From assembly GCF_036507355.1 (NCBI RefSeq), contig NZ_AP027877.1: a DNA stretch of 64,000 nucleotides; one strand, 5' to 3'. Made by a program: the position numbers and the translations under genes. The notes beneath the pieces are model-generated. The model made no database searches. It saw nothing but the letters and a program-made list of their open reading frames with translations, and had not been told where the DNA came from. Below are positions 49,743 to 58,392 of the stretch, one piece after another (position 1 is the stretch's first letter; every line of letters starts with the position of its first letter). Origin of the DNA: Escherichia coli (GTDB lineage Bacteria; Pseudomonadota; Gammaproteobacteria; Enterobacterales; Enterobacteriaceae).

Positions 49743-50489
49743 ATGTTAAAAAAGATACTTTTACTGGCTCTGCTTCCTGCAATCGCCTTCGCAGAGGAAC
49801 TTCCTGCTCCAGTAAAAGCGATTGAAAAACAGGGTATTACGATCATCAAAACGTTCGATGCCCCCGGAGGAATGAAAGGTTATCTCGGAAAGTATCAGGA
49901 TATGGGCGTCACCATCTACCTGACTCCAGATGGTAAGCACGCTATCTCTGGTTACATGTACAACGAGAAAGGTGAAAACCTGAGTAACACACTTATCGAA
50001 AAAGAAATTTACGCACCAGCCGGACGCGAAATGTGGCAACGGATGGAACAATCCCACTGGCTCCTCGACGGTAAAAAAGACGCGCCGGTCATTGTCTACG
50101 TCTTCGCCGATCCGTTCTGCCCATATTGTAAACAGTTCTGGCAGCAGGCGCGCCCGTGGGTAGATTCTGGCAAAGTACAGTTGAGAACATTGTTGGTTGG
50201 GGTTATCAAACCAGAAAGTCCGGCGACAGCCGCGGCAATTCTTGCCTCCAAAGATCCCGCAAAAACCTGGCAAGAATATGAAGCCTCTGGTGGCAAGCTT
50301 AAGCTAAACGTGCCTGCAAACGTAAGTACAGAGCAAATGAAAGTGTTAAGCGACAACGAGAAACTCATGGACGATCTGGGGGCAAATGTCACTCCGGCTA
50401 TCTATTACATGAGTAAGGAAAATACGCTGCAACAGGCCGTGGGGTTGCCCGATCAGAAAACGCTTAATATCATTATGGGAAATAAATAA
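49743..50489 (+). CDS. dsbG: periplasmic disulfide isomerase/reductase DsbG
   Basis: ORF 49683..50489 trimmed to [17 protein letters not shown] signal peptide; thioredoxin-like CPYC; 248 aa. Confidence 0.9.
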
Positions 50490-50697
50490 AAGGTAATTCA
50501 TGGATGGTTGAACTATATCCCTGCTTTTCAACCATCCTAAAAAAGCATGAATTGCTCGCTCTGCCCTAAGTGGCTGTGCTATTTTAGAAAAACTTAATCC
50601 TGAGTTAAGCAAAAAAACATAATCAATAAAAATATATACGCAAAAAACATTGATTAAGTGAATATATCATGGAAGAAAAATATAACCGGAGTAGTGT

Positions 50698-51600
50698 ATG
50701 ACCAATCTCTACGACTTGAAAAAGTTCGACTTAAATCTTCTTGTCATATTTGAGTGTATTTACCAGCATTTAAGCATTAGCAAAGCTGCTGAATCACTAT
50801 ATATCACCCCATCAGCCGTGAGCCAGTCGTTACAACGCTTACGTGCGCAATTTAATGACCCTTTATTCATTCGCTCAGGAAAAGGTATCGCGCCGACGAC
50901 AACAGGGTTAAATCTGCATCACCATCTTGAGAAAAATCTCAGAGGCCTTGAACAAACAATTAATATAGTCAATAAGTCCGAACTAAAGAAAAACTTTATT
51001 ATTCACGGCCCTCAGCTCATTTCTTGCTCTAATAATAGTATGCTGATCCGCTGCCTACGGCAAGATTCCTCTGTCGAGATTGAGTGCCATGATATCCTCA
51101 TGTCAGCAGAGAATGCTGAAGAACTGTTGGTTCACCGCAAAGCCGATCTGGTGATCACCCAAATGCCAGTGATCAGCCGTTCCGTCATTTGCATGCCATT
51201 GCATACGATTCGCAATACTCTAATTTGTAGTAATAGGCATCCACGAATTACTGACAATAGCACTTATGAACAAATTATGGCAGAAGAGTTCACCCAATTA
51301 ATATCTAAATCAGCAGGGGTTGATGATATTCAAATGGAAATAGACGAGAGATTTATGAATCGCAAAATTTCATTTCGTGGTTCCTCTTTGCTGACAATCA
51401 TTAATAGCATTGCAGTTACAGATTTACTGGGAATAGTCCCCTATGAACTTTATAACTCCCACCGTGACTTTCTTAATTTAAAAGAGATAAAACTAGAACA
51501 TCCGTTACCTTCAATAAAGCTTTACATTTCCTATAATAAATCTTCTTTAAACAATCTGGTGTTCTCCCGATTTATTGACCGTCTAAATGAGTGTTTTTGA
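50698..51600 (+). CDS. ybdO: LysR-family transcriptional regulator
   Basis: 300 aa; N-terminal HTH; AT-rich gene and upstream region. Confidence 0.85.
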   Translation: MTNLYDLKKFDLNLLVIFECIYQHLSISKAAESLYITPSAVSQSLQRLRAQFNDPLFIRSGKGIAPTTTGLNLHHHLEKNLRGLEQTINIVNKSELKKNFIIHGPQLISCSNNSMLIRCLRQDSSVEIECHDILMSAENAEELLVHRKADLVITQMPVISRSVICMPLHTIRNTLICSNRHPRITDNSTYEQIMAEEFTQLISKSAGVDDIQMEIDERFMNRKISFRGSSLLTIINSIAVTDLLGIVPYELYNSHRDFLNLKEIKLEHPLPSIKLYISYNKSSLNNLVFSRFIDRLNECF

Positions 51601-51746
51601 TATATAACTTCAGACAGCTACTATAACTTTCACCTATTTATTCACAGCGCGAATGAAAAATAAAACACTCTGCTTTTCAGTGTTTACTTTATAATTAACA
51701 GTCTTATCTCACTGATCACCCTGTAACGTTCAGAGAGCGTCTTCAG

Positions 51747-52967
51747 ATGTCTATTTATAAAATTCCTCTTCCGCTCAATATTCTGGAAGCTGCACGAGAG
51801 CGTATTACCTGGACACTCAACACCCTACCCCGCGTTTGTGTCTCATTTTCTGGCGGCAAAGACTCTGGTTTAATGCTGCATCTGACAGCCGAACTTGCCC
51901 GACAAATGGGCAAAAAAATCTGCGTTTTGTTTATCGACTGGGAGGCGCAATTCTCTTGCACCATTAACTATGTTCAGTCCCTGCGCGAGTTGTACACCGA
52001 TGTCATCGAAGAGTTTTACTGGGTTGCGCTCCCGCTTACGACGCAAAATTCCCTTTCACAATACCAACCCGAATGGCAGTGCTGGGAACCTGATGTCGAA
52101 TGGGTGCGTCAGCCCCCGCAAGATGCGATAACCGATCCTGACTTTTTCTGCTTTTACCAGCCAGGCATGACCTTCGAACAATTTGTACGTGAGTTTGCCG
52201 AATGGTTTTCACAAAAACGTCCGGCGGCGATGATGATCGGCATCCGTGCGGATGAGTCCTACAACCGTTTTGTCGCCATCGCCAGTTTAAATAAACAACG
52301 TTTTGCCGACGATAAACCCTGGACTACGGCCGCACCAGGCGGTCATAGCTGGTACATTTACCCCATTTACGACTGGAAAGTGGCTGATATCTGGACCTGG
52401 TATGCAAATCATCAAAGTCTCTGCAACCCACTGTATAACCTAATGTATCAGGCAGGCGTTCCTCTGCGTCATATGCGAATTTGCGAACCTTTTGGCCCGG
52501 AGCAACGACAAGGATTATGGCTCTATCACGTTATCGAACCGGATCGCTGGGCTGCTATGTGCGCACGAGTCAGCGGGGTAAAAAGTGGCGGCATTTACGC
52601 CGGACATGACAATCATTTCTATGGGCATCGGAAAATCCTCAAGCCAGAACATTTAGACTGGCAAGAATATGCATTATTGCTGCTCAATAGCATGCCAGAA
52701 AAAACAGCTGAGCATTACCGCAATAAAATCGCCATTTATTTGCACTGGTATCAGAAAAAAGGCATCGAGGTTCCACAAACCCAGCAAGGGGACATTGGCG
52801 CGAAAGATATCCCTTCCTGGCGGCGGATATGCAAAGTTTTACTCAATAACGATTACTGGTGTCGGGCATTATCATTTAGTCCTACGAAAGCGAAGAACTA
52901 TCAGCGTTATAACGAACGGATAAAAGGAAAACGTCAGGAATGGGGGATACTATGCAACAACGATTAA
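51747..52967 (+). CDS. ybdN: PAPS-reductase-like PP-loop ATP pyrophosphatase family protein
   Basis: 406 aa; PP-loop motif SFSGGKDS near N-terminus. Confidence 0.85.
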   Translation: MSIYKIPLPLNILEAARERITWTLNTLPRVCVSFSGGKDSGLMLHLTAELARQMGKKICVLFIDWEAQFSCTINYVQSLRELYTDVIEEFYWVALPLTTQNSLSQYQPEWQCWEPDVEWVRQPPQDAITDPDFFCFYQPGMTFEQFVREFAEWFSQKRPAAMMIGIRADESYNRFVAIASLNKQRFADDKPWTTAAPGGHSWYIYPIYDWKVADIWTWYANHQSLCNPLYNLMYQAGVPLRHMRICEPFGPEQRQGLWLYHVIEPDRWAAMCARVSGVKSGGIYAGHDNHFYGHRKILKPEHLDWQEYALLLLNSMPEKTAEHYRNKIAIYLHWYQKKGIEVPQTQQGDIGAKDIPSWRRICKVLLNNDYWCRALSFSPTKAKNYQRYNERIKGKRQEWGILCNND

Positions 52968-53569
52968 CGCAGGATTTAACGCAATTTCTCGCCAGCTTGC
53001 CGGAAGATGATCGCATCAACGCGATTAATGAAATCCGCATGGCGATCCATCAGGTTAGCCCCTTTCGTGAAGAGCCAGTGGATTGCGTTCTGTGGGTTAA
53101 AAACAGCCAACTTATGCCTAATGATTACAACCCAAACAACGTGGCACCACCCGAAAAAAAACTGCTGAAAAAATCCATTGAAATAGATGGTTTTACCCAA
53201 CCCATTGTGGTCACGCATACGGATAAAAATGCCCTGGAAATCGTGGATGGTTTTCACCGCCATGAAATTGGTAAAGGCTCATCATTATTACAATTACGCT
53301 TAAAAGGTTATTTGCCGGTGACCTGTCTGGAAGGTACGCGTAATCAACGCATCGCCGCGACTATTCGTCATAATCGCGCTCGTGGACGCCATCAAATCAC
53401 CGCCATGTCGGAAATCGTCCGTGAACTTAGCCAGTTGGGATGGGACGATAATAAAATTGGCAAAGAGCTGGGAATGGACAGCGACGAAGTGCTGCGCCTG
53501 AAGCAAATTAACGGCCTGCAAGAGTTGTTTGCCGACCGTCAATATTCCCGCGCCTGGACGGTTAAATAG
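52940..53569 (+). CDS. ybdM: ParB/sulfiredoxin-like domain protein
   Basis: 209 aa; DGFHRH motif; overlaps ybdN 3' end by 28 nt. Confidence 0.8.
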   Translation: MGDTMQQRLTQDLTQFLASLPEDDRINAINEIRMAIHQVSPFREEPVDCVLWVKNSQLMPNDYNPNNVAPPEKKLLKKSIEIDGFTQPIVVTHTDKNALEIVDGFHRHEIGKGSSLLQLRLKGYLPVTCLEGTRNQRIAATIRHNRARGRHQITAMSEIVRELSQLGWDDNKIGKELGMDSDEVLRLKQINGLQELFADRQYSRAWTVK

Positions 53570-54730
53570 CTAAAGCTGGCGCAGGCGTTCAGCTGCTGCC
53601 AGCAACGTCGATTCCTTCTTGGCAAAACAGAGACGAATCAGTTTATGAGGGAAGGGATCGGCGCAAAACACCGATAGCGGAATCGCCGCTACGCCGTGCT
53701 CCTGCGTCAGCCACTGGCAAAACTCAACATCATCCAGGGTAGATACGGCGCTGTAATCCACCAGCAAAAAGTATGTACCTTCACACGGTAAAATCTCCAG
53801 CCGGCTTTCATTTAAAGCATTCACCAGAATATCGCGCTTCTGGCGATAAAAGTCCGGTAACGCAAGATAATGCTCAGGTTCTGCACATAGCATATCAGCA
53901 AGCGCCAGCTGTGCCGGGGTATTCACCGAAAAGGTCAGATACTGATGTACCTTGCGAATTTCGGCACTGATGGGCGCTGGCGCAACGCAATAACCCACTT
54001 TCCAGCCGGTCATATGATAGGTCTTGCCAAACGATGACACCGCCACTGCCCGCTCACGCAGCTGCGGATGTGCCAGCACGCTGGCATGGCCCTGCTGTGA
54101 AAAGTTGATGTGCTCGTAGACTTCATCGCTAATGACAAAAATCTCGTGCCCGGCAATCGCCTGCCACAAAGCGGCGAAATCAGCCTGCTGCCAGACAGTA
54201 GCGCTGGGGTTATGCGGTGTGTTGAGGATCACCAGTCGGGTACGATCGCTTAACAAAGCGGCAAACTCCTGCCAGTCCACGCGAAAATACGGCGGTTGCA
54301 GCGCAATACGTTTCACTATCCCCCCAGAAAGCACGATGGCAGGGGCGTAACTGTCATAGCTGGGATCAAAACAAATCACTTCGTCGCCATTGCGCACCAA
54401 TGCGGTTATCGCTGCGTATAACGCCTCCGTCGCCCCTGCCGTCACGGTGATATCGCTGTCGGCATCCGGTTGATAGCCATACAGACGTTCCGTTTTCTGA
54501 GCAATCGCCTCGCGCAATGCCTGCACGCCGGTCATGGGCGCGTATTGGTTTGCCCCCTGGGCAACGTGGTACGCCAGCCGCTCCTGTAAATAGCGCGGAC
54601 CATCAAAATCAGGAAAGCCTTGCGAAAGGTTAATCGCCTGGTGTTGCTGCGCCAGCGCGCTCATCTGGGTGAAAATAGTGGTGCCAAGTTGTGGAAGTTT
54701 GCTTTGTGGAATCAGAGGGTTATTTGTCAT
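53570..54730 (-). CDS. ybdL: PLP-dependent aminotransferase (methionine-oxo-acid transaminase)
   Basis: 386 aa; aminotransferase class I fold with SFGKT lysine motif. Confidence 0.9.
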   Translation of the reverse strand: MTNNPLIPQSKLPQLGTTIFTQMSALAQQHQAINLSQGFPDFDGPRYLQERLAYHVAQGANQYAPMTGVQALREAIAQKTERLYGYQPDADSDITVTAGATEALYAAITALVRNGDEVICFDPSYDSYAPAIVLSGGIVKRIALQPPYFRVDWQEFAALLSDRTRLVILNTPHNPSATVWQQADFAALWQAIAGHEIFVISDEVYEHINFSQQGHASVLAHPQLRERAVAVSSFGKTYHMTGWKVGYCVAPAPISAEIRKVHQYLTFSVNTPAQLALADMLCAEPEHYLALPDFYRQKRDILVNALNESRLEILPCEGTYFLLVDYSAVSTLDDVEFCQWLTQEHGVAAIPLSVFCADPFPHKLIRLCFAKKESTLLAAAERLRQL

Positions 54731-54838
54731 TTTTATTGTGCCTGACGAAGTTGTGTGTTGAAGGCACTATAACACGATGCTAGTATTTGGCAATCAAGAC
54801 GTTTAGATGTCTAAATAAAACAACAAGGACAACACAAC

Positions 54839-55927
54839 ATGCCTCACAATCCTATCCGCGTGGTCGTCGGCCCGGCTAACTACTTTTCACATCCAGGAAG
54901 TTTCAATCACCTGCACGATTTTTTCACTGATGAACAACTTTCTCGCGCGGTGTGGATCTACGGCGAACGCGCCATTGCTGCGGCGCAAACCAAACTTCCG
55001 CCAGCGTTTGGACTTCCAGGGGCAAAGCATATTTTGTTTCGTGGTCATTGCAGCGAAAGCGATGTACAGCAACTGGCGGCTGAGTCCGATGACGATCGCA
55101 GCGTGGTGATTGGCGTCGGCGGCGGCGCACTACTCGACACCGCGAAAGCCCTCGCCCGCCGTCTCGGTCTGCCATTTGTTGCCGCTCCAACGATCGCCGC
55201 CACCTGCGCCGCCTGGACACCGCTCTCCGTCTGGTATAACGATGCCGGACAGGCGCTGCATTATGAGATTTTCGACGACGCCAATTTTATGGTGCTGGTG
55301 GAACCAGAGATTATCCTCAATGCGCCGCAACAATATCTGCTGGCGGGGATCGGTGACACGCTGGCGAAATGGTATGAAGCGGTGGTGCTGGCTCCGCAAC
55401 CAGAAACGTTGCCGCTAACCGTGCGACTGGGGATCAATAATGCGCAGGCCATTCGCGACGTCTTGTTAAACAGTAGCGAACAGGCGCTGAGCGATCAGCA
55501 AAATCAACAGTTAACGCAATCATTTTGCGATGTGGTGGATGCTATTATTGCTGGTGGTGGGATGGTCGGTGGTCTGGGCGATCGTTTTACGCGTGTGGCG
55601 GCGGCTCATGCCGTGCATAACGGTCTGACCGTGCTGCCGCAAACCGAGAAGTTTCTTCACGGCACCAAAGTCGCCTACGGAATTCTGGTGCAAAGCGCCT
55701 TGCTGGGTCAGGATGATGTTCTGGCGCAATTAACTGGAGCGTATCAGCGTTTTCATCTGCCGACTACGCTGGCGGAGCTGGAAGTGGATATCAATAATCA
55801 GGCGGAGATCGACAAAGTGATTGCCCACACCTTGCGCCCGGTGGAGTCCATTCATTACCTGCCAGTCACGCTGACACCAGATACGTTGCGTGCAGCGTTC
55901 GAAAAAGTGGAATCGTTTAAAGCCTGA
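54839..55927 (+). CDS. ybdH: iron-containing alcohol/hydroxycarboxylate dehydrogenase (glycerol dehydrogenase-like)
   Basis: 362 aa; GVGGGALLDTAKA nucleotide-binding motif. Confidence 0.88.
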   Translation: MPHNPIRVVVGPANYFSHPGSFNHLHDFFTDEQLSRAVWIYGERAIAAAQTKLPPAFGLPGAKHILFRGHCSESDVQQLAAESDDDRSVVIGVGGGALLDTAKALARRLGLPFVAAPTIAATCAAWTPLSVWYNDAGQALHYEIFDDANFMVLVEPEIILNAPQQYLLAGIGDTLAKWYEAVVLAPQPETLPLTVRLGINNAQAIRDVLLNSSEQALSDQQNQQLTQSFCDVVDAIIAGGGMVGGLGDRFTRVAAAHAVHNGLTVLPQTEKFLHGTKVAYGILVQSALLGQDDVLAQLTGAYQRFHLPTTLAELEVDINNQAEIDKVIAHTLRPVESIHYLPVTLTPDTLRAAFEKVESFKA

Positions 55928-55936
55928 CGTGCAAAT

Positions 55937-56134
55937 TTAGCAGCAGCGCGCGCCGCCTTTTCCACCGTAGCGCGCGTCCTGCCGCTCACGGAAAAACTCT
56001 TCGTAGGTCATCGGCGTTTGATCGGGATGGTTAACCCGCATATGTTCGACATAGTTGTCGTAATCAGGCATACCAATCATCAGTTTCGCCGCCTGACCTA
56101 AATATTTTCCGGCTTTTGCCAGTGAATCAAACAT
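55937..56134 (-). CDS. ybdD: DUF466 small protein downstream of cstA
   Basis: 65 aa [33 protein letters not shown]. Confidence 0.85.
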
Positions 56135-56286
56135 CAATACCTCCGGTAAACAGGTTGCTGAGAGAGTGCATTAATAGCTATCAACGCGCTCGGTCAGTCC
56201 CCTCGCCCCATCGAGGAGAGGGTTAGGGTGAGGGGGAACCCTCGGCACTATGCCAACATTCGCCAACATCCCCCCTCACTCTGACT

Positions 56287-58392
56287 TTAGTGCGCGCCTT
56301 TCGCCTGCGCTACGATCTCCTCAACATTTTCCGGCATCGGCTCATACGGCGTTTCTTTCGCCGTTGGCTTCGGCTCTTTCAATGCCGCAAGTGCCGTCTT
56401 AATCGAGAACAGTGCCAGAACCACCACGACCACCATAAAGAAGATGGTTAACCCGGCATCCAGACGGTTGTTGAACACCAGTTGCGCCAGCTGTGACTCA
56501 GTATACTGCGACGGAATATTGCCGCTGTCGATCATTGCCTGGAACTTGTTAGCAATGGCCAGGAAGCCGACTTTCGCATCCGGGCTAAACGCTTTCTGCC
56601 AGCCAGCGGTCAGGGTACAAATCAGCAGCCAGGCCGTTGGTACCAGCGCCACCCAGGCGTAACGTTGACGTTTCATTTTGAACAGCACCACGGCACAGAG
56701 CATCAGCGCCATCCCTGCCAGCATCTGGTTGGCAATACCAAACAGCGGCCACAGAGTGTTAATACCGCCCAGCGGATCGACCACACCCTGATGGAGGAAG
56801 TAGCCCCACGCCAGTACGCACAGCGCCGTTGCCAGCAGGTTAGCAGGCAGTGAATCGGTCCGCTTCAGGCCAGGAGACACCACGCCCAGCAGATCCTGCA
56901 ACATAAAGCGCGCAGCACGCGTACCCGCATCTACCGCCGTCAGAATAAACAGAGCTTCAAACAGAATGGCGAAGTGATACCAGAACGCTACATCCATCAT
57001 ACCACCCAGCGCACCGTGCAGGATGTAAGCCATCCCCACCGCCAACGTCGGCGCACCGCCCGCACGGGAAATGATCGACTGTTCACCCACTTCGCTGGCA
57101 ATCTGGTTGAGCGTATCTGGTGTAATGCTAAAGCCCCAGCTACTCACCACCTGCGCGGCAGAAGCGACCACATCCGCCGTCCCTGCCGGAGCCAGCACCG
57201 CCATTGGGCTGTTCATGGCAAAGTAAACGCCCGGATCGATGATACAGGCGGAAACCAGCGCCATAATCGCCACGAAGGATTCCATTAACATTCCACCGTA
57301 GCCGATAAAGCACGCCTGCCCTTCGTTCGCCAGCATCTTCGGCGTGGTGCCGGAAGAGATCAGCGCATGGAAGCCAGACACCGCACCACAGGCGATGGTG
57401 ATAAACAGGAACGGGAACAGGTTACCGGTCCATACCGGGCCAGTGCCATCGACAAATTTGGTCAGCGCAGGCATGGTCAGCGTCGGACGCATAATCAAAA
57501 TGCCTACCGCCAGACCGACGATAGTCCCGATTTTCAGGAAGGTAGAGAGGTAGTCACGCGGGGCCAGCAGTAACCACACCGGCAGCACCGCCGCCACAAA
57601 ACCGTAGCCCACCAGCATCCAGGTCAGCTGCACGCCGGTAAAGTCAAAGTACGGTGCCCAGGTCGGGCTTTCTGCCACCCAGCCGCCAGAGATAATGGCA
57701 AAAATCAGGAACACCAGGCCAATCACTGACACTTCGCCAATACGCCCCGGACGCAGATAGCGCAGGTAGATCCCCATAAACAGCGCCAGCGGAATGGTGA
57801 ACGCAACGGTATACGTTCCCCACGGGCTATGAGTCAGGGCTTTCACCACGATCATCGCCAGCACAGCAAGGATAATGACCATGATCATAAAGCAGGCCAC
57901 CAGCGCGATCACCCCGGCGGTTGGCCCCATCTCTTCTTTGACCAGCTCACCCAGCGAGCGACCGTCACGGCGCGTAGAAACAAACAGCACCATGAAATCC
58001 TGCACCGCACCGGCGAGAACCACCCCGGCGAGCAGCCAGATCATCCCCGGCAGGTAGCCCATTTGTGCTGCCAGCACCGGCCCCACCAGCGGCCCTGCTC
58101 CGGCAATGGCCGCAAAATGGTGACCGAACAGCACTTTCTTGTCCGTCGGCACATAGTCCAGCCCGTCGTTATGCCGCACCGCTGGCGTCATACGCGTCGG
58201 GTCAACCGCCAGCACATTTTTGGCGATATACAGACCATAAAAACGGTAAGCGATCAGATAGATACAGACCGACGCCACCACAATCCACAGTGCGTTGATC
58301 TGTTCCCCACGATTTAAAGCAATGTATCCCAGAGCAAATGCTCCCATTACAGAGAGCACTGTCCAGACGAGGTATTTCCCTGATTTGTTCAT
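56287..58392 (-). CDS. cstA: carbon starvation protein A (peptide/pyruvate transporter family)
   Basis: 701 aa polytopic membrane protein. Confidence 0.92.
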   Translation of the reverse strand: MNKSGKYLVWTVLSVMGAFALGYIALNRGEQINALWIVVASVCIYLIAYRFYGLYIAKNVLAVDPTRMTPAVRHNDGLDYVPTDKKVLFGHHFAAIAGAGPLVGPVLAAQMGYLPGMIWLLAGVVLAGAVQDFMVLFVSTRRDGRSLGELVKEEMGPTAGVIALVACFMIMVIILAVLAMIVVKALTHSPWGTYTVAFTIPLALFMGIYLRYLRPGRIGEVSVIGLVFLIFAIISGGWVAESPTWAPYFDFTGVQLTWMLVGYGFVAAVLPVWLLLAPRDYLSTFLKIGTIVGLAVGILIMRPTLTMPALTKFVDGTGPVWTGNLFPFLFITIACGAVSGFHALISSGTTPKMLANEGQACFIGYGGMLMESFVAIMALVSACIIDPGVYFAMNSPMAVLAPAGTADVVASAAQVVSSWGFSITPDTLNQIASEVGEQSIISRAGGAPTLAVGMAYILHGALGGMMDVAFWYHFAILFEALFILTAVDAGTRAARFMLQDLLGVVSPGLKRTDSLPANLLATALCVLAWGYFLHQGVVDPLGGINTLWPLFGIANQMLAGMALMLCAVVLFKMKRQRYAWVALVPTAWLLICTLTAGWQKAFSPDAKVGFLAIANKFQAMIDSGNIPSQYTESQLAQLVFNNRLDAGLTIFFMVVVVVLALFSIKTALAALKEPKPTAKETPYEPMPENVEEIVAQAKGAH

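Follow-up and report, generated by a model that had tools for sequence, protein, structure and literature searches.

The ybdM-ybdL junction and its neighbours

The window analysed in this study is a stretch of 64,000 nucleotides of Escherichia coli DNA (contig NZ_AP027877.1), and its subject is the point where ybdM and ybdL meet at their 3' ends. Locally, dsbG, citR, ybdN and ybdM lie on one strand and ybdL lies on the other, followed by hcxA, ybdD and cstA. ybdM is the final gene of the ybdNM operon, and its start is overlapped over 28 nt by the end of ybdN, whose product carries the Pfam domains PAPS_reduct and DUF3440. The features of the locus are collected in Table 1.

Table 1. Features at and around the ybdM-ybdL junction, in coordinates of the window (a point in the strand column marks a feature without a strand)
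Feature	Position	Strand	Basis or remark
citR (ybdO), LysR-type repressor of ybdNM	50698..51600	+	ORF, K-12 annotation, PMC9068703
ybdN CDS, PAPS reductase + DUF3440, first gene of ybdNM	51747..52967	+	ORF, K-12 annotation, Pfam
ybdM CDS, 209 aa, ParB-like/IbrB-like protein	52940..53569	+	ORF, RefSeq annotation; ends ...AWTVK
C-rich, G-poor stretch, candidate Rho loading zone	53410..53529	-	40-160 nt past ybdL stop, antisense to ybdM
U-rich tail UUUAGCUAUUU, candidate weak intrinsic terminator for ybdL	53564..53574	-	relaxed hairpin-plus-tail scan
ybdM stop codon TAG	53567..53569	+	read directly in sequence
ybdL stop codon TAG (cta on + strand)	53570..53572	-	sequence and ORF list
ybdL CDS, 386 aa, methionine aminotransferase (methionine-oxo-acid transaminase)	53570..54730	-	ORF, annotation; ends ...RLRQL
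Imperfect inverted repeat GCTGGCGCAG..CTGCTGCCAGC in last 10 ybdL codons	53575..53603	.	RNA hairpin on either strand
C-rich, G-poor stretch, candidate Rho loading zone	53670..53870	+	100-300 nt past ybdM stop, antisense to ybdL
Promoter-like site upstream of ybdL, TTGCCA-16-TATAGT, extended TG	54766..54793	-	10/12 consensus matches
Tandem MetJ-box-like AGACGTTTAGATGTCT beside ybdL promoter-like site	54797..54812	.	2 mismatches to two met boxes

Read directly, the plus strand at 53560-53579 consists of ggttaaaTAG followed without a break by CTAaagctgg. Both stop codons are TAG and thus form a 6-bp palindrome, TAGCTA (53567-53572), with 0 bases in between. The same arrangement is found in the RefSeq annotation of K-12 MG1655, where ybdL occupies 633586..634746 and ybdM 634747..635376 (gap 0), and the RefSeq annotation of strain 33F4 also has a ybdL/ybdM gap of 0. 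The preliminary description of this DNA had stated that the two stops abut with zero intergenic space, and the sequence, the open reading frames and the K-12 and 33F4 annotations agree with it. These are two genuine coding genes on opposite strands, with their 3' ends facing and a spacer of at most 0 nt. A 1.9-kb query over the junction found matches in 5420 of 5426 complete E. coli genomes at 90-99% identity, and the genes annotated under those matches were ybdN (PAPS reductase), ybdM (IbrB-like/ParB-like) and ybdL (methionine-oxo-acid transaminase). When a 101-nt probe centred on the junction was used, 5314 of the 5426 genomes were matched over at least 80% of the probe length, and the 13 full-length matches among those listed span exactly 101 nt, ungapped.

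The abutment would be only apparent if one of the two stops were not a true protein end, a concern raised by the fact that YbdM is little characterised and that its ParB_N match lies below the Pfam cutoff (24.9 vs 26.3 bits). However, a stop codon is set by the sequence, and mis-calling is possible for starts only. The Pfam domain Aminotran_1_2 covers residues 32-383 of the 386 residues of YbdL (E 2.6e-58), and the end position of YbdL is unchanged in species without ybdM. The YbdM C-terminus, ...WT[VI]K, is kept in 44 of 44 species loci with ybdM, and both reading frames are full length with conserved C-termini across these 44 species. According to literature cited in PMC11481890, YbdL has a solved structure and an assigned function, and ybdM rises together with ybdN when citR is deleted (PMC9068703). 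An annotation artefact is thus extremely improbable and was rejected on the cross-species conservation of both frames and their C-termini; judged from sequence conservation, both stop codons are the native ends of YbdL and YbdM. As a separate observation, PADLOC returned weak domain-level matches only, for YbdN (DndC, BrxP) and for YbdM.

Constancy and frequency of the zero gap

The species survey used one genome per species and was scanned with YbdL, which gave 80 loci. ybdM was the convergent neighbour downstream of ybdL in 44 of the 80, and the stop-to-stop gap was 0 in 42 of these 44, the other two being Citrobacter loci (L015 and L037) with a gap of 13 nt. These two natural inserts suggest that extra sequence can be tolerated between the stops. 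The gap of 0 was found in Escherichia, Citrobacter, Enterobacter, Kluyvera and Klebsiella, and likewise in Raoultella, Lelliottia, Pseudocitrobacter, Superficieibacter and Huaxiibacter. Loci that keep the zero gap have YbdM identities down to ~60%, and the ybdM-bearing loci use six ybdL/ybdM stop-codon combinations, with TGA never used by ybdM. The neighbouring convergent pair ybdD-hcxA served as an internal control, and across these loci its gap varies between 8 and 859 nt. Because the control pair varies this much, selection, and not a lack of mutational opportunity, could also account for why the zero gap is kept so strictly. This cross-genus constancy is one of two mildly new points of this study.

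Where ybdM is absent, ybdL has other neighbours. In Kosakonia, Pluralibacter and others it faces dsbG at 4, 29 or 30 nt, and in Atlantibacter and others it faces a citR-like gene at 2-14 nt, the full range of gaps to such a gene being 2-214 nt. In still other loci, as in Mangrovibacter, ybdL faces unrelated genes behind canonical hairpin/T-tract terminators. The GC content is 0.37-0.41 for citR, 0.44-0.50 for ybdNM and 0.53-0.56 for ybdL. By this GC contrast, together with the neighbours found where ybdM is absent, the junction is the edge of a low-GC citR-ybdNM block that is variably present in the Enterobacteriaceae. The zero gap is reproducible and ancient, yet it is not rare.

The frequency of such junctions was estimated from three 50-kb stretches of the K-12 annotation (150 kb), which contain 24 convergent CDS pairs. 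Two of the 24 have a gap of 0 (ycaM-ycaN and ydhK-sodC), three overlap by 4 nt (amiD-ybjS, ybjD-ybjX and purR-punR) and one has a gap of 3 nt (yadE-panD). Lillo and Krakauer listed 58 convergent overlaps in E. coli, and intrinsic terminators were predicted, inside the partner gene, for only 20% of the genes in those overlaps (PMC2174442). The ybdM-ybdL junction is an ordinary and already known kind of arrangement.

Transcript overlap and candidate termination signals

The missing spacer leaves neither mRNA room for a 3' untranslated region or an intergenic terminator, and any run past a stop codon is antisense to the partner gene. The pair has already been reported by ExcludonFinder (NAR 2025), in which ybdL-ybdM is among 165 convergent overlaps of MG1655; the list holds overlaps present in at least 50% of 58 MG1655 RNA-seq samples, and an overlap is called when coverage past the CDS end stays above 50% of the gene mean (PMC12288877). 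Because the spacer is zero, ybdL-ybdM would pass this threshold almost automatically. The pair ybdD-hcxA in the same window is also an ExcludonFinder entry (PMC12288877). Overlap is common among E. coli convergent operons in general, with 276 of 370 (75%) overlapping by a mean of 286 nt (PMC4161252). The earlier proposal that the convergent transcripts must overlap at their 3' ends is therefore sound, as such overlap is close to unavoidable with a zero spacer, and it had already been published (PMC12288877).

A standard terminator scan found no terminator at the junction, since only 4 U occur in the first 8 tail positions where 5 T of 8 are required. The inverted repeat in the last ybdL codons does form a stable GC-rich hairpin of the kind expected of an intrinsic terminator (53575-53603), with fold energies of -15.8 kcal/mol on the ybdL RNA and -17.2 kcal/mol on the ybdM read-through RNA. 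In its 71-nt context the stability is no better than that of shuffled sequences (z -0.18 and -0.31). On the ybdL RNA the hairpin is followed directly by UUUAGCUAUUU, which consists of the ybdL stop codon and the complement of the ybdM stop and final Lys codon. Of the 11 positions in this tail, 7 are U; a relaxed hairpin-plus-tail scan reports the site, and the standard one misses it. The relaxed scan returned only 19 sites on both strands of the window (128 kb), about half of them within ~100 nt downstream of a called open reading frame, and at 19 sites per 128 kb the chance of a hit at most 10 nt from a given stop is ~0.3%.

Comparison between species gives a mixed picture of this motif. The hairpin arises from the conserved LAAAERL codons of ybdL, and hairpin plus tail are present in all six Escherichia loci. 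By a fixed-position count, the hairpin geometry is found in 18 of 44 loci with ybdM and in 9 of 36 without it. The mean hairpin energy is -12.3 kcal/mol with ybdM and -10.9 kcal/mol without (p = 0.04, ignoring phylogeny), a comparison that is marginal and confounded by phylogeny and GC content. Because the fold is no better than shuffles and the species comparison is marginal, a selected terminator is not claimed.

The two C-rich stretches in Table 1 have 24-27 C vs 12-14 G per 80 nt at 53410..53529 on the minus strand, and 20-27 C vs 12-17 G per 80 nt at 53670..53870 on the plus strand. By base composition, both would be compatible with Rho loading on untranslated RNA. Another terminator-like site, inside ybdL (53674-53692, minus strand), was set aside as chance level, with 4 such sites found vs 7.1 expected. 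Rfam at a permissive threshold over 51500-56300 returned no family at the junction, only a spurious miRNA match far away. A search of the supplements of SMRT-Cappable-seq (PMC7815308), the Term-seq study of Adams et al. (PMC6131387) and TERMITe (PMC12207403) found no entries for ybdL or ybdM, and in the first two none for ybdN. Expression of ybdL and ybdM may have been too weak for their ends to appear in these supplements.

Regulation, interference and the preferred explanation

The two sides of the junction have separate regulatory inputs. CitR represses ybdNM, and citR itself has been described as H-NS-regulated (PMC9068703). On the other side, AGACGTTTAGATGTCT beside the promoter-like site of ybdL is the sole tandem met-box match in the window, with 0.13 expected by chance, and PMC11481890 refers to a MetJ site predicted for this cluster. 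According to PMC5493296, genomic SELEX for a minor sigma factor gave a peak at 633930 (old K-12 numbering), which lies ~40 bp from the junction. A sigma-28 lead was dropped, as the best match within 53200-54000 scores 11/16, which is background (128 such matches in the window).

The preliminary description had further suggested that the overlap could give mutual antisense interference, and published data sets bear on this indirectly. In wild-type total RNA, ybdL has 11.2 RPM sense and 1.9 RPM antisense, and ybdM has 9.4 RPM sense and 4.0 RPM antisense (Huang et al., PMC7373196). Both genes are weakly expressed in LB, at ~4-11 RPM sense (PMC7373196), and antisense reads on ybdM amount to 26-48% of sense (PMC7373196 Table S1c). 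Neither ybdL nor ybdM sense RNA rises in the RNase III mutants rnc-14 and rnc-38 (PMC7373196 Tables S1b and S1c). p19-captured dsRNA amounts to 4-9.6 RPM for ybdL and 0.85-6.9 RPM for ybdM, vs 270-600 RPM for hcxA (PMC7373196), and the portion of Table S3 of that study covered here lists no duplex between hcxA and citR (old K-12 coordinates 632139-636639). It should be noted that p19 captures 3' overlaps poorly, so the low dsRNA signal is weak negative evidence. Deletion of citR raises ybdN by 5.5 and ybdM by 2.5 log2 units, with base means of 36 and 20 (PMC9068703), and a search for ybdL in the text and tables of that paper, including its differentially expressed genes, found no mention of it. 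For Salmonella, PMC11481890 reports changes of ybdL and ybdM that go the same way. With weak expression, low dsRNA, no rise in rnc mutants and ybdL unreported upon ybdNM derepression, mutual interference is unsupported by these indirect data, all of which come from laboratory conditions with ybdNM repressed.

The same data can be weighed against a stronger form of this idea, a functional convergent excludon in which colliding polymerases, RNase III cutting of the duplex, or both would make ybdL and ybdNM mutually exclusive, so that methionine-salvage transamination under MetJ (ybdL) is opposed to the ybdNM module under CitR. The zero spacer forces the overlap, the pair is on a published excludon list (PMC12288877), the two sides have separate regulators (CitR acting on ybdNM, and for ybdL the MetJ-box-like sequence beside its promoter), antisense reads on ybdM reach 26-48% of sense (PMC7373196), and adjacency and zero gap are kept across more than 10 genera. 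However, entry on that list is near-automatic at zero spacer, and a zero gap can be expected to stay conserved even if selection does not act on it. Derepression of ybdNM in the citR deletion left ybdL outside the reported differentially expressed genes (PMC9068703), neither mRNA goes up in rnc mutants, p19 dsRNA stays at or below 9.6 RPM (PMC7373196), and the two genes change in the same direction in Salmonella (PMC11481890). An excludon of this kind is unlikely.

A second alternative, which is compatible with the main explanation, is that the hairpin at the end of ybdL and the U-rich complement of the ybdM Lys and stop codons form a selected terminator shared by both genes and embedded in their coding sequence. 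The ybdL mRNA would then end 2-6 nt past its stop and the overlap would be kept to a few tens of nucleotides, while the same stem-loop would act as a collision-type bidirectional terminator for ybdM. The fold energies on both strands, the ~0.3% chance of a relaxed site (19 in 128 kb) this near a stop and the presence of the motif in six of six Escherichia loci all speak for it. Where convergent genes terminate by collision at a set position, stem-loops are required (bioRxiv 10.1101/2022.10.23.513370), and intrinsic terminators have been predicted inside the partner for 20% of convergently overlapping genes (PMC2174442). Against it, the site failed the standard scan for want of U (4 among the first 8 tail positions), shuffling its 71-nt context costs no stability, the stem comes from LAAAERL codons and is present without ybdM too (9/36 vs 18/44), a ribosome finishing ybdL would cover it, and the ybdL 3' end was not found in the Term-seq supplements searched. 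This alternative is unlikely, though less so than the excludon. That the last codons of the two genes may jointly form a weak ybdL terminator is the other mildly new point of this study. A further step, also unlikely, is that the zero gap itself would be a selected dual-coded element, with ybdL codons providing the stem and the ybdM Lys and stop codons on the other strand providing the U-tract. If it were true, the C-terminal coding sequence of each gene would be the termination signal of the other, and the strict zero gap over more than 10 genera (vs 8-859 nt for ybdD-hcxA) would reflect that constraint.

The explanation preferred here, and quite probably the correct one, is that this is an ordinary, fully compacted convergent junction with no dedicated regulatory device. 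In some Enterobacteriaceae a low-GC citR-ybdNM block separates ybdL from dsbG, and the end of ybdM would have been squeezed against ybdL until the stops touched, which is the smallest state with both proteins intact. Such a state would preserve itself, since every deletion costs a stop codon and an insertion is harmless only when it falls exactly between the two. The zero gap could thus have persisted while the stop codons turned over, without any need of selection. As there is no intergenic DNA, both transcripts must end inside the opposite gene, and if both are produced, they carry complementary 3' ends. Some ybdL transcripts may stop at the weak hairpin in the last codons, followed by UUUAGCUAUUU across the junction, and the remainder would run untranslated into antisense ybdM, where Rho would stop them. 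ybdNM transcripts would enter antisense ybdL and be ended by Rho or by collision. Given the CitR repression of ybdNM and the weak expression of ybdL and ybdM alike, the overlap would usually have little or no effect on expression.

The significance of the junction is small, as the K-12 reference annotation already shows the arrangement and a genome-wide map of convergent overlaps lists the pair. What this study adds is context, namely the constancy of the zero gap (invariant over the E. coli genomes covered, and kept in 42 of 44 other enterobacterial species despite changing stop codons), its position at the border of a present-or-absent low-GC citR-ybdNM block and the frequency of zero gaps in K-12. 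Nothing suggests a new mechanism, and ybdL-ybdM could be a clean, weakly expressed model for the ending of transcripts where there is no spacer.

Comparison with known systems places the pair among similar junctions. In ycaM-ycaN, ydhK-sodC, amiD-ybjS, ybjD-ybjX and purR-punR, as in ybdL-ybdM, the 3' ends face each other and an intergenic terminator has no room, the gaps in this group being 0 or -4 nt, and the five K-12 pairs just named are all in the ExcludonFinder list. No structural difference from them was found, and the TAGCTA of ybdL-ybdM is replaced by five other combinations in other species. The relatives without ybdM have the same YbdL C-terminus and stop position but can carry intergenic terminators after ybdL, such as the A-tract, GC hairpin and T-tract ~20-60 nt after the ybdL stop in Mangrovibacter or the GC hairpin in the 30-nt spacer between ybdL and dsbG in Kosakonia, whereas the ybdM-bearing species have no spacer. 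With the convergent excludons of PMC12288877 the pair shares an entry in the same MG1655 map, but these are defined by mutually exclusive expression through interference or RNase III, and the indirect data for ybdL-ybdM point the other way. The junction also resembles the overlapping bidirectional terminators of Ju et al. (2019), as described in bioRxiv 10.1101/2022.10.23.513370, in having a stem-loop at the convergence and one side without a canonical terminator. However, those terminators are described as placed between genes, whereas the predicted ybdL-ybdM stem-loop lies inside the ybdL coding sequence, and the low expression of ybdL and ybdM predicts that collision termination between them would be inefficient (bioRxiv 10.1101/2022.10.23.513370).

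Variants of the ybdL 3' junction in relatives

Among the 44 loci of the YbdL scan (one genome per species) in which ybdM lies beside ybdL, the only exceptions to a zero gap between the two stop codons were two Citrobacter species (L015 and L037), in which an insert of 13 nt with the sequence tgacgtgatttcg or tgacgcgatttcg was found exactly between the ybdL and ybdM stops. ybdNM was absent from Enterobacter sp. 10-1, Klebsiella indica and Raoultella terrigena. When the ybdL-citR spacers of 150-214 nt in these three loci (L029, L050 and L066) were compared with the ybdM 3' end of relatives, they matched it in register at ~70-75% identity, the match starting 16-18 nt past the ybdL stop, though with low alignment scores. 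The spacer looks like a remnant from a deletion of ybdNM.

Coordinates of features at and around the ybdL-ybdM junction (positions in the window unless a locus is named)
Feature	Position	Strand	Location or remark
YbdN + YbdM coding region	51747-53566		
Weak sigma-70-like site, TAGCCA-18-TAAAAT	53428-53457	+	9/12 matches; inside ybdM 3' end, directed into ybdL
Tandem met-box-like sequence	54797-54812		ybdL-hcxA divergent promoter region, beside ybdL -35 element
hcxA	54839..55927	+	
ybdD	55937..56137	-	
ybdL-citR interval without ybdNM	L029 5162-5311		
ybdL-citR interval without ybdNM	L050 5162-5375		
ybdL-citR interval without ybdNM	L066 5162-5310		
13-nt insert between ybdL and ybdM stops	L015 5162-5174		Citrobacter
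13-nt insert between ybdL and ybdM stops	L037 5162-5174		Citrobacter

Composition and coding content of the citR-ybdNM block

The GC content of citR and its flanks (window 50300-51900) was 0.32-0.41 versus 0.53-0.59 in ybdL and hcxA. This is consistent with the reported regulation of citR by H-NS (PMC9068703), and also with citR-ybdNM being a block that is present or absent between ybdL and dsbG. In searches against PADLOC, YbdN gave weak matches to PAPS-reductase-type DndC (E 2e-5) and BrxP (E 1e-4), and YbdM, which RefSeq names IbrB-like, showed weak similarity to a ParB-like methyltransferase model, in the N-terminal portion of that model.

ybdN and ybdM overlap on the same strand by 28 nt (window 52940-52967), identically in the K-12 annotation, and a start at the second in-frame ATG of ybdM, 4 codons downstream, would overlap ybdN too. 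The stops of ybdL and ybdM are both amber, each with C as the next base. Past the ybdL TAG the frame stays open for 89 codons, antisense through ybdM (window 53300-53569, - strand), and past the ybdM TAG for 35 codons (window 53570-53677, + strand); therefore, amber-suppressor strains would be expected to produce longer YbdL and YbdM.

Candidate regulatory signals near ybdL

The sequence AGACGTTTAGATGTCT was the single match of the tandem met-box kind in the window, where the expected number was 0.13, and this candidate met-box site agrees with the co-regulation with met genes that has been reported (PMC11481890). The promoter scan that includes the sigma-70-like site was at chance level overall, with 6 sites seen versus 8.2 expected. 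Additionally, genomic SELEX placed a binding peak of minor-sigma RNA polymerase inside ybdL at old K-12 coordinate 633930 (PMC5493296), which corresponds to about window 53609, ~40 bp from the ybdL-ybdM junction; no sigma-28 consensus match above background was found near this peak.

The neighbouring convergent pair ybdD-hcxA

A second tight convergent junction, hcxA/ybdD, lies 2.4 kb from that of ybdL-ybdM and has a gap of 9 nt (window 55928-55936). Across other genera, the gap of this pair ranged from 8 to 859 nt in the species loci compared. The ExcludonFinder list of overlapping convergent transcripts in MG1655 also contains ybdD-hcxA (PMC12288877). In the p19-captured double-stranded RNA data of PMC7373196 (Table S3), this pair, in contrast to ybdL-ybdM, has a strong duplex of 5182 reads, located within hcxA at ~50 nt from its 3' end.
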